Positions 9,158 through 30,448 of a DNA stretch of 64,000 bases are shown piece by piece. Source of the DNA: an uncultured Bacilli bacterium (GTDB lineage Bacteria > Bacillota_I > Bacilli_A > RF39 > UBA660). Position 1 is the first letter of the stretch. Each line of letters begins with the position of its first letter. A program made the position numbers and the translations under genes. The stretch covers positions 978-64,977 of the forward strand of contig CAKOQK010000001.1 in assembly GCA_934101225.1 (NCBI GenBank), in the 5' to 3' direction. The notes under the pieces are model-generated. The model saw only the letters and a list, made by a program, of their open reading frames with translations. It was not told the DNA's origin and ran no database searches.

Positions 9158-9727
9158 TTATTCATTTACTGCACTAAATCTAATTTTAGTTTCAAACTTC
9201 TTATTATTTTTATTATTATTACTATAATAGTAAATTATATATGTATGAACACTACTTTCAGTACCAGTACTAAAAAAACCTTCACCTAAATCTATTGTGC
9301 TAACACCTTTTAAATTATTTAAATAATATTTAGTTTTAGCATCTGCTTTTTCCGTAATTTTACCATTTCCATCGGTTTTACCACCAAGAATAAAATATAT
9401 TTCGTTATCAGCATATTGATTATAATTAACATCAAGTAATAATTTATAAGGCAAAATATCCACATCACTATTATTTGTTCCCGTAATTGAAAATGTTTTT
9501 GAACCAGCCATATTGCCTGACATTTCGTAATCACTTGATTTAAATACAGCACTATTGCCTTGATATGTAACTACCATTTTGCCATTTGCTACATTAATAA
9601 CATCCATATCTATACTTCCTGATAAATTATCAGTCATATATGCAAAACTTGTTCCAATAGTTACAACTACAATTATAGCAACTATCATTACCCCTAATAA
9701 AGTTTTATTTGTTTTTGTCATATTCAT
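9158..9727 (-). CDS. Secreted beta-rich protein with a SipW/TasA-type signal peptide (paralog family member 1)
   Basis: 189 aa. The N-terminus is KTNKTLLGVMIVAIIVVVTIGTSFAYMTDN, the pattern of SipW-cognate signal peptides in TasA/camelysin-like proteins. It shares blocks NGKMVVTY and FSITGTNNSD..PYKLLL with three other ORFs. Confidence 0.55.
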   Translation of the reverse strand: MNMTKTNKTLLGVMIVAIIVVVTIGTSFAYMTDNLSGSIDMDVINVANGKMVVTYQGNSAVFKSSDYEMSGNMAGSKTFSITGTNNSDVDILPYKLLLDVNYNQYADNEIYFILGGKTDGNGKITEKADAKTKYYLNNLKGVSTIDLGEGFFSTGTESSVHTYIIYYYSNNNKNNKKFETKIRFSAVNE

Positions 9728-9736
9728 TCTCCTTTA

Positions 9737-10330
9737 TTAAATAATTAAACCTAAATAAGCTTTAAAATTACAATTTACATTTTGCTCTTTATTCGTTTCA
9801 ATAAAAAACATATATAACGTGTATTCATGATTTATTTGATCACCACTTTTGGTAAAATATCCAGTACCTAAGTTAATTGTCAAATTAGTTCCCTTATTTA
9901 TTTTACTAATACTATTTGATGAAAATGCAGTTTTAGCATTAGTAACTAGTGAACCATTATTATTATTTTTACCTACCAATATATAACCTATATCATTATT
10001 GTCAAATTCGTTAGTTTTCACAACTAAATTTAATTTATATTCCATTTTTAAATCTGTTGTATTTGTTCCACTTATCACAAAACTCTTATTTAAAATAGCA
10101 TCATTTACTGAAGTAGTTGGTCCAGGTATAACATTACTAAACACTATATTTGGATTTTTATCAGTAAAATTTATAATCATTTTACCACTAGTCAAATCAA
10201 TATTAGAAGTTGAGTTTCCATTTATAAACATTGGTGAAAAATATGAATAAGTTATACCAAAAGTAACAAGAACCATTAGTGCAACTAAACTTATACAAAT
10301 CATTATAAAATTAGATTTACTCACAAGCAT
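9737..10330 (-). CDS. Secreted beta-rich protein with a SipW/TasA-type signal peptide (paralog family member 2)
   Basis: The likely start is the ATG at 10330, preceded by GAAGGTGA; the track start at 10375 is over-extended. N-terminus is MLVSKSNFIMICISLVALMVLVTFGITYSYFSP. Shared blocks are SGKMIINF and FVISGTNTTD..EYKLNL. Confidence 0.55.
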   Translation of the reverse strand: MLVSKSNFIMICISLVALMVLVTFGITYSYFSPMFINGNSTSNIDLTSGKMIINFTDKNPNIVFSNVIPGPTTSVNDAILNKSFVISGTNTTDLKMEYKLNLVVKTNEFDNNDIGYILVGKNNNNGSLVTNAKTAFSSNSISKINKGTNLTINLGTGYFTKSGDQINHEYTLYMFFIETNKEQNVNCNFKAYLGLII

Positions 10331-10385
10331 ATCACCTTCTATATTAATATTACTAAAAATTAAATTAAACTTCAATTAATTTTTA

Positions 10386-30000: not shown

Positions 30001-30394
30001 TATCATAAATTTCATTTTTATTTAAATCAGTTGTATTACATTTTTGATTTACTGCCCATCCAATAAACTTATAACCACTATTTGGAGTAAATTTCATTCT
30101 AACGATGCAATATCTTCCATTAAATATTCCACTATCACATCCATAATATTTTAAAGAATTATCACTTCCTGTTAATAATCTTAAATTTTCATTTTCATTT
30201 ATTTGCACCAAAGTTCCCGCATTACCATCTGGAACTACAAACGTATAAATTCTATCATTTGCACTAGCTGCAATAACCTCATCATCATTAACACTAACAC
30301 TATTTTTATTTAAAGATTCATATCCAATAAACATAAATCCTAAACAAAGAATAATTACTATAATTAATGAAATATATTTTAATCTTCTTCCCAT
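27044..30394 (-). CDS. Large surface adhesin-like protein (GY.F.GW repeat modules, Cys-rich region, five or six cadherin-like beta-sandwich domains, C-terminal TM)
   Basis: The likely start is the ATG at 30394 (GGAG 5 nt upstream; the track TTG start at 30448 overlaps the promoter). SGYKFIGWAV and TGYEFVGWSN resemble Listeria-Bacteroides repeat modules. Repeated L..L.V....F....Y.Y...V units occupy the C-terminal half. Confidence 0.65.
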   Translation of the reverse strand: MGRRLKYISLIIVIILCLGFMFIGYESLNKNSVSVNDDEVIAASANDRIYTFVVPDGNAGTLVQINENENLRLLTGSDNSLKYYGCDSGIFNGRYCIVRMKFTPNSGYKFIGWAVNQKCNTTDLNKNEIYDTSAFTKKTTPTIVRACTERINNSSSTNNSGGTNNNNTKKSNFKIRAGTGISYFTLNRQSGNITALEDKNNRISLACSTNTCSISNVDVKMATGYEFVGWSNVNDCNNIITKEIKNFYFSPSTSYDFLACAKKKTTSNTTPSSCKIKLDISSGEKYTIYDNGKEVKTTSKNGDTYDCQSSQCYAKIISFNNKYKGLAGDGDCSTGVRTTGTEVYCVNSGVTVKACYNNSSSGNTGGGNNSQPDNPVEDNKTETLNSEFYAKDKEFMGKSIKCGDKLYITTCTTGDNALCDVTTINGTKVSNTQIYKSNITNDETKTGCYQKIERYVSEKTFYFTNQKLSENKTEIKCGSIVTFKKSIANACSGNACEVEYDGKIVYIDKSYITSDKPACSEASTCETSSYVKNAKGDVTVRICEKDDNENTRNNIVTCAEDYEYTYKMTTDNSSETDSSKRYKEYVYTCNYIKRPGVNASAGVINSKGVGTINIKGITYGDNPVIGYYVSNGEAPTVNSTWINFDAANNLASIEKTVGTYFIWTINNKHRLSYPVLAKIYDADLSTTLASFKLQDENGNDISTNLNSLDSTVGYTDNIRDSKYALLSNDLLSDSIGGFDRLSTSYELSVTSSKIAIYATLTSEDASYVSGFEPRTINLDYGRNVALIKIVNKDGKERCYSFIINRVDDRNSSNLLKNIKLSKGNIDFDSYVTNYDVKISKFTKKVSINAELESNTAKFVEGYEPREVEITEDTQSAVLKVISETGSIRSYVITFIKSGEYIENVNSTYLSSLTVPGTMLGFDKETFDYTITVPYETEDIPIYAFAENENAEVKVGNNTGLKVGNNLIQIEVKNGNKTRIYSLHVIRKESGLDVSNSAKLGSLNIKNYNIEFTPDKLDYEIKIKREKTLLISASPESDRADIYMYGNNDLTSFSTVRVKVIAENGLTNIYSIDIQKEAYNKKIEIIVSISICLFITISGIILIVNRKSKISKEYMEG

Positions 30395-30419
30395 ATTCTC
30401 CACACTACTTTCTATTAAA

Positions 30420-30448
30420 ATTTTACAATATATTATCACTTTATTCAA
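30420..30448 (-). promoter_or_regulatory. Putative sigma-A promoter of the T4SS-like operon
   Basis: On the minus strand: TTGAAT (30448-30443), 17 nt spacer, TAAAAT (30425-30420). Confidence 0.5.

Follow-up and report, generated by a model that had tools for sequence, protein, structure and literature searches.

We describe an operon located at positions 9158–30394 of a 64,000-nucleotide stretch of contig CAKOQK010000001.1 (assembly GCA_934101225.1), from an uncultured Bacilli bacterium; this whole stretch is called the window below. The operon encodes the core of a monoderm type IV secretion system (T4SS) along with VirB2-like pilins, Tad-like proteins, and adhesins. It consists of 20 co-directional open reading frames (ORFs) on the minus strand, with intergenic gaps of at most 90 bp and several gene overlaps (Table 1). 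A preliminary description of the window, made from the sequence alone, had counted about 22 tightly packed genes on one strand; the packing and the strand were borne out, but the number is 20. The window is very AT-rich (GC ~0.20–0.32), and nearly all of its genes are on the minus strand. A scan for VirB4 in one genome per species (GTDB representatives) confirmed relatives in at least 569 species-representative genomes. Locus comparisons throughout use the best 80 of these (74–99% identity), and because these 80 loci come from 80 different assemblies, the operon looks single-copy.

Secretion system core, pilins, and adhesins

The coupling protein VirD4 is matched by Pfam T4SS-DNA_transf (E = 4e-54), TraG-D_C, and TrwB_AAD_bind, and exceeds the cutoff of the conjugative NCBIfam family conju_CD1115 (299 bits, cutoff 250). 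Its Walker motifs are intact, as are Walker A and B of the VirB4 ATPase. The latter is matched by AAA_10, P-loop_TraG, and DUF87, and is related to PDB 4AG5 (E = 8e-57). The best curated match of VirB4 is a model from mycoplasma integrative and conjugative elements (ICEs), NF045975 (VirB4_plasma/Mbov_0397), at 351 bits, which misses the cutoff of 590; it also scores 185 bits to CD1110. Three consecutive ORFs tile this single 894-position profile, with the 106-amino acid VirB3-like ORF covering positions 4–96, the 184-amino acid TrsD-like ORF positions 99–282, and the 597-amino acid VirB4 ORF positions 294–891. The preliminary description had seen VirB4 as two ORFs; the separation is real, and the full set is a VirB3-like/TrsD-like/VirB4 triplet. 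As the TrsD-like ORF is separate from VirB4 in all 80 related loci, the split is a conserved arrangement and not a broken gene. The TrsD-like protein is matched by Pfam TraC-like in relatives, and pGO1-type and Patescibacteria systems provide precedents for encoding the TrsD-type N-domain as a protein of its own (PMC12102498).

The remaining core components vary in how clearly profiles recognize them. The VirB6-like polytopic protein exceeds the cutoff of Pfam TrbL_4 (31.1 bits, cutoff 27) and also matches NCBIfam MMCAP2_0566 and Mbov_0396, both under cutoff. The VirB3-like ORF has weak matches to TcpE (E = 0.033) and to VirB4_plasma positions 4–96 (E = 0.054), and its position and size are kept in 53 of the 56 loci that have at least 9 kb of upstream sequence. 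Cell-wall hydrolases had also been predicted: the enzyme with peptidase and lysozyme domains is confirmed, while the second, a 380-amino acid membrane-anchored protein, gave weak matches to RipA-type NlpC/P60 structures in the PDB (E ~0.4–0.5) and a faint NLPC_P60 match on its orthologue in locus L173. Two small bitopic proteins were found beside the hydrolases, as foreseen. Neither has a significant Pfam or NCBIfam match, and the best Foldseek match of the AlphaFold2 (AF2) model obtained for one of them is an NTF2-like protein at a nonsignificant E of 0.13.

VirB2-like proteins were sought with a hidden Markov model (HMM) built from proteins of the relatives. The three VirB2-like proteins are the only ones in the window that match this family HMM (E = 1e-25 to 1e-41). 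Pfam T4SS_pilin (PF18895) was matched in 17 family members; 146 members were scanned singly, of which 42 are VirB2-like. The three VirB2-like calls of the preliminary description are supported because family members match T4SS_pilin.

The operon is headed by a cadherin-like adhesin, as had been proposed at about 1100 amino acids. This protein of 1116 amino acids, a length also given by independent gene calls in other samples, has a signal or anchor helix, Cys-rich repeats, Cadherin-like β-sandwich domains, and a C-terminal transmembrane anchor, and it is highly variable among relatives. The 198-amino acid surface protein encoded next shares a BLAST cluster with the other two adhesins. At the opposite end of the operon, the last two genes encode putative secreted proteins that have no significant Pfam or NCBIfam match; relatives of these two, 370–570 amino acids in length, are embedded among VirB2-like genes in other loci. 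A 517-amino acid ORF elsewhere in the window (37975-39528, minus strand) is a BLAST paralogue of the last two operon genes with a putative TasA/SipW-like signal. It has no Pfam or NCBIfam match and lies directly downstream of a GyrB/ParE-type gene, at the place where one would look for a GyrA/ParC partner.

The operon also contains Flp-, TadE-, and TadZ-like genes. The Flp-like (~80 amino acids) and TadE-like (~150 amino acids) families have a common N-terminal leader, M-[KR]-E-[AS]-x-G-[GE], with a hydrophobic helix after it; in the alignment of the Flp-like family this leader is conserved as M-K-E-A-x-G-E. A shared leader is characteristic of major and minor pilins that depend on a single prepilin peptidase for processing. 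This leader departs from both the canonical Flp motif, G/XXXXEY, and the type IV motif, G/FTLxE, and no Pfam match to Flp_Fap or TadE (PF07811) was found in 54 members. The window was not seen to encode a prepilin peptidase. None of the Flp-, TadE-, and TadZ-like proteins has a significant Pfam or NCBIfam match, and the profile of the TadZ-like family has none among PDB sequences; the 1141 homologues of the TadZ-like protein are all unnamed Bacilli proteins. In the AF2 model of the TadZ-like protein (pLDDT 81.5, 40-sequence alignment), the C-terminal domain resembles BcsQ, ParA, MinD, and FlhG by Foldseek (E = 3e-5 to 1e-3), although its Walker A motif is degenerate (xHAGATT) and has no lysine. 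As modeled, the protein has the TadZ/CpaE architecture of a receiver-like domain, here an N-terminal α/β domain, and a ParA/MinD-type domain, which upholds the TadZ-like call at the level of the fold.

Many relatives have a more complete set of such genes. In these, CpaB/RcpC, a T2SSE ATPase (E = 4e-27), and two membrane proteins are located directly upstream of the Flp-, TadE-, and TadZ-like genes in the same orientation, forming a contiguous Tad-like-pilus-plus-T4SS operon (for example, in loci L021, L027, L032, L057, L060, L062, L063, L066, L068, L072, and L076). The two conserved membrane proteins occupy the TadB/TadC position beside the ATPase; neither has a Pfam match, and a PDB profile search of one of the two families was empty. 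Because many relatives have CpaB and a secretion ATPase upstream, the Tad-like genes of the window belong to a wider pilus module. The Flp- and TadE-like identities are thus supported by the shared leader and by the ATPase and CpaB genes of relatives, but not by Pfam or the canonical motif. In the clade of the window, the operon is headed by tail-anchored cadherin-like adhesins in place of ATPase, platform, and CpaB genes, and no Tad-type ATPase (TadA/CpaF) or TadB/TadC platform was found in the 64-kb window by tblastn. Purifying selection thus maintains the pilin-like and TadZ-like genes with no motor encoded nearby; a Tad motor may reside in another part of the genome. A stand-alone PilB/ComGA-type T2SSE ATPase of 448 amino acids with a C-terminal CxxC...CxxC occurs ~7 kb past the right end of the window, on the opposite strand beside recD2 (L164, 2001-3347). 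It was considered as the missing Tad motor and rejected, as its identity to the Tad-type ATPase of relatives is just 29%.

With adhesins, three pilin families, and TasA-like secreted proteins sharing an operon with the T4SS core, the core might be just an assembly platform for VirB2-, Flp-, and TasA-like surface fibers that translocates no substrate and serves aggregation or attachment to mucus or particles. The degenerate Walker A motif of the TadZ-like protein fits a scaffold role of this kind. However, VirD4 is among the most conserved genes and retains its Walker motifs, and model T4SSs can build pili without VirD4, which serves as their substrate receptor. The adhesins, in turn, are the least conserved parts of the operon. 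A machine that makes fibers and does nothing else is therefore, in our estimation, very improbable.

The preliminary description had framed the operon with a TTGAAT-17-TAAAAT promoter and a terminator at 9129-9153. The promoter-like site is present, but its match to the consensus is partial and such sites occur at chance level (13 found versus 16.6 expected in shuffled sequence, no enrichment). It and a second candidate both lie downstream of a hairpin and T-run that end the upstream gene. The most probable start of the first gene is ATG 30394, which has a GGAGAA ribosome-binding site ahead of it. The hairpin and T-run of the terminator are also present, but the stem is weak and below the threshold of the scanner. 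Promoter and terminator scans gave nothing above chance in this 23%-GC DNA. Rfam searches of the whole 64 kb at gathering thresholds revealed no riboswitch or regulatory RNA; the thrS gene (52774-54600) has no T-box leader upstream by Rfam.

Table 1. Genes and signal-like sequences of the operon, by descending position in the window
Feature	Position	Strand	Evidence
Second promoter-like candidate, TTGAAA-18-TAAATT	30464-30493	-	
Promoter-like sequence, TTGAAT-17-TAAAAT	30420..30448	-	9/12 consensus match
Large surface adhesin, 1116 amino acids from ATG 30394	27044..30394	-	Pfam Cadherin-like, E = 5e-17
198-amino acid Cys-containing surface protein; signal peptide, C-terminal transmembrane anchor	26444..27040	-	No Pfam match
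388-amino acid surface protein; Thr-rich linker, Cadherin-like domain, C-terminal transmembrane anchor	25200..26366	-	Pfam Cadherin-like, E = 4e-7
VirB2-like pilin 1; signal peptide, two-helix hairpin, Cys-rich tail	24833..25222	-	Family HMM, E = 8e-34
Flp-like small pilin; leader MKEASG-E, one hydrophobic helix, Cys-rich C-terminal part	24467..24742	-	Leader alignment
TadE-like minor pilin; leader MRESIGG	23968..24450	-	Leader alignment
TadZ-like protein; receiver-like N-domain, disordered linker, ParA/MinD-fold domain	22912..23958	-	AF2 and Foldseek
VirB2-like pilin 2	22487..22876	-	Family HMM, E = 2e-41
VirB2-like pilin 3	22012..22422	-	Family HMM, E = 2e-25
VirB6-like polytopic channel protein; long Gly/Ala-rich and coiled-coil C-terminal extension	19503..21992	-	TrbL_4
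VirB3/PrgI-like two-helix membrane protein, 106 amino acids	19171..19491	-	Weak profile matches
TrsD-like ORF, equivalent of the VirB4 N-terminal domain, 184 amino acids	18636..19190	-	VirB4_plasma 99-282, E = 2e-13
VirB4 ATPase, C-terminal motor domain, 597 amino acids	16850..18643	-	Pfam, NCBIfam, PDB
Cell-wall hydrolase, Peptidase_M23 and Phage_lysozyme2 (VirB1 analogue)	14792..16828	-	Pfam, E = 5e-21 and 8e-27
Bitopic membrane protein at VirB8-like position; paralogue of 13840..14310 gene	14300..14782	-	ORF and clustering
Bitopic membrane protein; α-plus-four-strand-β ectodomain, VirB8/NTF2-like candidate	13840..14310	-	AF2, pLDDT 79
380-amino acid membrane-anchored protein; probable NlpC/P60-type C-terminal domain, second wall hydrolase	12683..13825	-	Weak
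VirD4 coupling ATPase; long acidic low-complexity C-terminal tail	10386..12632	-	Pfam and NCBIfam
Secreted protein; putative TasA/SipW-type N-terminal signal (...GITYSYFSP)	9737..10375	-	Signal type read by eye
Paralogue of 9737..10375 gene (...GTSFAYMTD); last operon gene	9158..9727	-	
Terminator-like hairpin CAGAT-attta-ATCTG and T-run	~9125..9150	-	5-bp AT-rich stem

Conservation and inheritance of the operon in related genomes

The relatives are recorded as uncultured Bacilli, "Tenericutes", and Firmicutes CAG:582, from human, rabbit, chicken, goat, and other guts. Gene order in their loci was determined by tblastn and ORF clustering. The 5' part begins with CpaB, the T2SSE ATPase, and the two membrane proteins, or else with cadherin-like adhesins, and continues with Flp-like, one or two TadE-like, and TadZ-like genes. 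An array of two to six VirB2-like genes then precedes VirB6, VirB3, TrsD, and VirB4, and the 3' part consists of a hydrolase, two bitopic proteins, a second hydrolase, an LppM-like lipoprotein, and VirD4. Among the 56 loci with sufficient upstream sequence, VirB6 is found in 54, VirB3 in 53, at least one small VirB2-like gene in 43, and the TadZ-like and TadE-like genes in 37. VirD4 is present in 48 of the 56 loci with at least 8 kb downstream. Seven loci (L036, L041, L061, L070, L075, L045, and L078) have a collagen-like (GPT-repeat) protein and unrelated genes after VirB3/TrsD/VirB4, in place of the hydrolases and VirD4; the operon is split or rearranged in the clades with this collagen-like gene.

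The flanks of the operon in relatives are housekeeping in character. Downstream of VirD4, 17–33 loci have a small conserved gene, a VTT/DedA-family gene, and RmuC. The latter two were confirmed by Pfam, while the small gene has no Pfam match and is rhodanese-like by eye only. Upstream flanks in other clades are infC-rpmI-rplT (read from the sequences) or dnaB/dnaI. Genes seen as singletons in the flanks, by inspection only, include glmM, murC, gltX, lon, and similar. The sole mobility-flavored neighbor, present in a few loci, is a PD-(D/E)XK "transposase-like" gene of the Rpn type.

VirB4 diverges in step with one of these neighbors. Pairwise identities of VirB4 and the adjacent RmuC are closely correlated across 17 loci (Pearson 0.91, Spearman 0.76), at least as strongly as those of VirB4 and its own operon partners, and VirB4 is the more conserved of the two (mean 78% versus 67%). 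VirB4 is also as conserved as threonyl-tRNA synthetase (ThrRS) or more so, at ~75% identity to the window as compared with 69–78%. Ratios of nonsynonymous to synonymous substitution (dN/dS) were calculated by the Nei-Gojobori method against close relatives, dS being near saturation in more distant pairs. Strong purifying selection is seen for VirB4 (0.02–0.11) and VirD4 (0.05–0.14). TrsD is at 0.04–0.21, and the TadE-like and TadZ-like genes are at about 0.2–0.3, with 0.17–0.20 for the TadE-like gene. Evolution is much faster in the adhesins, VirB6, and second hydrolase, and every gene compared is intact.

At the strain level, the adhesin and T4SS adjoin the upstream flank gene in 17 of 17 contigs from several samples, and no empty site was found among them. 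The downstream junction of the operon is identical in three samples. The only polymorphism at this junction is the presence or absence of Amidase_2 and AAA_14/DUF4143 genes; one contig from a Hadza sample is without them, whereas the window (2240-3256 and 4883-6199) and two other samples have both. A DUF4143-type gene is inserted within the operon in the relative L064.

The VirB4 family is distant from known mobile elements. Among 1927 plasmid matches, the best VirB4 is 29% identical. In a set of 1.84 billion representatives of 50%-identity clusters, the family forms one cluster, the two next full-length relatives are 42–45% identical, and all others are at 34% or below. The few outgroup VirB4 clusters whose source is named come from Thomasclavelia, Erysipelotrichaceae, Solobacterium, a Mycoplasmatota plasmid, and Desulfocucumis. 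The nearest outgroup VirB4 (45% identity) has no relative among the species-representative genomes.

Mobility genes and the chromosomal neighborhood

Pfam and NCBIfam scans of every window ORF of at least 100 amino acids revealed no relaxase, integrase/recombinase, transposase, replication, or partition domain, in agreement with the preliminary description. No relaxase, integrase, or transposase was found within ~10 kb past either end of the window, nor, aside from the "transposase-like" Rpn-type gene, in the sampled flanks of the 80 related loci. Mycoplasma ICEs have a Mutator-like DDE transposase (CDS22) and terminal inverted repeats; no transposase domain of any kind occurs in the window, in which inverted repeats were not searched specifically. 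The absence of flanking tRNAs and obvious direct repeats also held up. ARAGORN detects no tRNA in the window, and no direct match between the two sides of the operon exceeds 13 bp, as compared with 13–19 bp for random pairs of regions.

The operon has a GC content of 0.25–0.32, slightly above some of its flanks, and the rise coincides with the most conserved operon genes. A foreign origin was considered on this basis and rejected: the equally conserved parE and thrS genes show the same GC, so the rise is not evidence of foreign origin.

These observations bear on the possibility that the operon belongs to an ordinary or mycoplasma-like ICE whose relaxase, origin of transfer (oriT), and integrase or DDE transposase lie outside the DNA examined. 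One of two readings offered by the preliminary description was similar, an unusual conjugative element with its DNA-processing module outside the window. Such an element would account for the standard monoderm conjugation core, the VirD4 score above a conjugative-family cutoff, and the slightly raised GC, and would fit a chromosomal position that varies between distant clades. It is disfavored by the finding of a single locus in each of the 80 assemblies, the presence of the system in at least 569 species, the conserved housekeeping flanks, the co-divergence of VirB4 with rmuC, and the mobility-gene searches in the window, its ~10-kb flanks, and the flanks of relatives. The absence of a tRNA or of a bounding repeat above chance, the lack of an empty site in 17 strain contigs, the 29% identity of the nearest plasmid VirB4, and a GC content equal to that of parE and thrS weigh in the same direction. 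Within the reach of these searches, the marks that the preliminary description had associated with an ordinary ICE are not seen: no relaxase or integrase adjoins the operon, no repeats bound it, and its distribution is not patchy. We regard an ICE as highly unlikely.

The other reading of the preliminary description, a domesticated T4SS, is favored by the broad distribution, fixed gene order, housekeeping flanks, purifying selection, and lack of both an empty site and mobility genes. From these sequence comparisons, the operon is probably a chromosomally fixed, vertically inherited, domesticated monoderm T4SS, a lineage trait of genome-reduced gut Bacilli and not the module of a mobile element.

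Several points weigh against this conclusion. A relaxase or oriT may lie elsewhere on the chromosome, as the search covered the window, ~10 kb on each side, and the flanks of relatives. The chromosomal position of the operon is not uniform across the clade and differs between distant clades. VirB4 and the unlinked ThrRS correlate only moderately in pairwise identity (r = 0.58; 21 pairs from 7 genomes, namely 6 assemblies and the window), a test that is small because only 6 assemblies overlapped with the VirB4 search. One pair is clearly discordant (81.8% for VirB4 versus 68% for ThrRS), and some horizontal exchange within the clade is therefore possible. The VirB3-like and VirB8-like assignments are weak. 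The clade of the relatives is presumably the GTDB order RF39, which we take from record titles and not from a phylogeny. Lastly, a retained and strongly conserved VirD4 is no less compatible with DNA or effector export than with uptake.

The neighbors of the operon are core genes, as previously noted: rpsT (~34058, plus strand), trmB, and the GyrB/ParE-type gene are all present in the window, as are thrS, whiA, gpsA, yfhO, and an Fe-hydrogenase gene. Exact-protein look-ups placed frr, tig, an ABC-F gene, and rnfC/D past the left end of the window, and an FtsX/ABC pair, the PilB/ComGA-type ATPase, and recD2 past the right end. The 635-amino acid gene downstream of the operon (7167-9074) was considered as a hidden relaxase and rejected, as it has no family or PDB match, is found in the closest relatives only, and lies beyond the terminator-like hairpin. 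This gene is adjoined by a radical SAM/SPASM gene (6360-7151), and a Peptidase_C39-like surface protein (3454-4785) is encoded further downstream, across the variable AAA_14/DUF4143 gene. Together these genes (3454-9074, minus strand) look like a peptide-maturation cluster of the type that produces ribosomally synthesized and post-translationally modified peptides. The sole phage-flavored content of the window is an ORF6N/Rha-type antirepressor-like gene (60743-61609, minus strand) with a small HTH_3-type regulator upstream.

Relation to known systems and proposed function

VirB2 is reported to be absent from Gram-positive T4SSs except in Patescibacteria, whose system was described in a 2025 nomenclature review as having a unique pilus potential among monoderms (PMC12857230). 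The Patescibacteria T4SS is relaxase-less and, with its pilin array, essential, as in Southlakia epibionticum ML1 (PMC12102498, PMC12857230). It includes a TrsD-like ORF, PrgI, VirB6, divergent VirB2-like arrays, and a peptidase/lysozyme just downstream of virB4 (PMC12102498). The operon described here has the same monoderm MPF-FATA-type core, with a TrsD-like ORF beside VirB4, a candidate PrgI/VirB3-like protein, a VirB6-like protein, divergent VirB2-like arrays near virB4, and a peptidase and lysozyme immediately downstream. Both systems are chromosomal, have no nearby relaxase, and are associated with a type IV-class pilus, here a predicted one, and both are spread through a genome-reduced lineage, near-universally in Patescibacteria and in at least 569 species here. 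They differ in that the present host belongs to the Bacillota (Bacilli), that cadherin-like adhesins and Tad-type pilin genes are inside the operon, and that VirD4 is usually in the operon, while it is rarely close to virB4 in Patescibacteria. Furthermore, the named nearest relatives of VirB4 are from Erysipelotrichaceae and Mycoplasmatota (29–34% identity), and no Patescibacteria occur among the few named clusters. As these few named relatives lie elsewhere, membership in the Patescibacteria VirB4 clade is unlikely and parallel domestication is possible. By analogy, the Patescibacteria system is the closest functional parallel, in the sense of "works like" and not of "member of". We place the operon with the co-opted monoderm T4SSs that have a pilin array and no relaxase; its phylum-level context is new, and it is genetically fused to adhesin or Tad-like modules.

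Conjugative T4SSs of pGO1, pIP501, and pCF10 (TrsD-TrsE, PrgI/H/J/K/L, and PcfC) resemble the operon in having VirB1-like hydrolases (LytM/lysozyme/NlpC-type), VirB4, VirB6-like, and VirD4 proteins, VirB3-like and bitopic VirB8-like candidates, and surface adhesins for mating-pair formation, and pGO1 shares the split TrsD/TrsE-type VirB4. Unlike these systems, the operon is not borne on a plasmid or ICE and has no relaxase, oriT, or accessory factors that could be found nearby. Its VirB4 is at most 29% identical to plasmid systems, and its VirB2-like pilins are reported to be lacking in them (PMC12857230). The genetic coupling of a VirB4-type machine with type IV filament-class pilins is also seen in the thin pilus of IncI plasmid R64 and in archaeal Ced DNA import; in contrast to these, the pilus module here is Tad-like and not type IVb or archaeal, and the clade of the window is without ATPase and platform genes in 64 kb. 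The Streptococcus suis 89K T4SS has a comparable Gram-positive VirB1/B3/B4/B6/B8/D4 set, for which VirB3 and VirB8 have candidate counterparts here, and has been implicated in roles beyond plasmid transfer, namely effector release, but 89K is strain-specific and not lineage-wide. The 89K locus is itself a mobile island with integration genes, and we know of no pilin array reported for it.

The mycoplasma ICEs (ICEA/ICEB, with CDS5 as VirD4, CDS17 as VirB4, and CDS16 as a VirB6-like protein) supply the best curated profile matches, VirB4_plasma/Mbov_0397 for VirB4, and Mbov_0396 and MMCAP2_0566 for the VirB6-like protein. They too have no canonical relaxase, and their hosts are low-GC, genome-reduced relatives of Bacilli. 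This likeness raises an alternative in which the operon is a domesticated conjugation apparatus for exchange of chromosomal DNA within the lineage, operating without a canonical relaxase in the manner of mycoplasma chromosomal or mycobacterial distributive transfer. The machine would be the same, but its cargo would be genomic DNA, which VirD4 would pass to a mating partner that the adhesins or pili keep in place. Mycoplasma ICEs drive chromosomal transfer and are likewise without a recognized relaxase (PMC12857230), VirD4 is kept in 48 of 56 loci under strong purifying selection, and rmuC, a recombination-associated gene, recurs as a neighbor. On the other hand, the scores to the mycoplasma models are all under the family cutoffs, and VirB3, TrsD, and VirB4 are three ORFs, whereas the mycoplasma model is one protein of 894 positions. 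The operon has no DDE transposase domain and appears to be single-copy in a fixed context, as opposed to multicopy and mobile. To our knowledge, VirB2-type pilins do not occur in mycoplasma ICEs, while the operon encodes three VirB2-like proteins. It also encodes wall hydrolases and bitopic proteins, several established or candidate members of the VirB1-like and VirB8-like kinds that mycoplasma ICEs are without (PMC12857230). Nothing in the analysis points to DNA processing, and retention across the order together with very low dN/dS suggests physiological necessity over optional mating, though not decisively. We consider chromosomal exchange an unlikely explanation, though the main functional rival.

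For the domesticated T4SS, we favor a role in contact-dependent exchange of macromolecules with neighboring cells, serving a partner-dependent lifestyle, as has been proposed for the Patescibacteria T4SS. Lineage-wide retention is the reason that physiological exchange of this sort is favored over self-transfer of an element. By homology, the VirB6-like channel, VirB3-like, TrsD-like, and VirB4 proteins would build a membrane translocon, possibly with the two bitopic proteins, and the M23/lysozyme and NlpC/P60-like enzymes would make local openings in the thin cell wall. Outside the cell, a tube or pilus may be assembled from the three divergent VirB2-like pilins. The cadherin-like tail-anchored adhesins would establish contact with a partner cell and determine its specificity; they appear to be replaced by the upstream Tad-type pilus in many relatives. 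VirD4 could feed or receive macromolecular substrates, either nucleic acid or protein, in either direction.

RF39 bacteria are described as having reduced genomes and no de novo nucleotide synthesis (PMC13155120), and these uncultured organisms have been speculated to have a dependent lifestyle (PMC13155120; PMC12306168). Our literature search found no paper that links RF39 to a T4SS. A bolder proposal is that the RF39 order depends on the domesticated T4SS, with its VirB2-type pilus, as a conduit to neighbors for nucleic acids and other macromolecules that the cells cannot make. This would constitute a second, independently evolved case of an epibiotic or parasitic lifestyle based on a T4SS, within the gut microbiota of humans and animals, with a modular swap between Tad pilus and cadherin-like adhesins for attachment. 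We put this forward tentatively, as a possibility with prospects well below even.

RF39 and its relatives are widespread and abundant in the human and animal gut, yet uncultured, and have reduced genomes with many auxotrophies. A conserved contact machine that is maintained by selection and combines a T4SS, pilins, and variable adhesins suggests physical dependence on partner cells, and may guide co-culture. The system would be the second pilin-bearing T4SS of monoderms, located in Bacillota, and bears on the statement that VirB2 is confined to Patescibacteria (PMC12857230). It would also represent a case in Firmicutes of a T4SS co-opted away from mobile-element transfer and an unusual genetic fusion of Tad-like pilus and adhesin modules with a T4SS, and may shed light on how the minimal conjugation machinery of mycoplasma ICEs arose.

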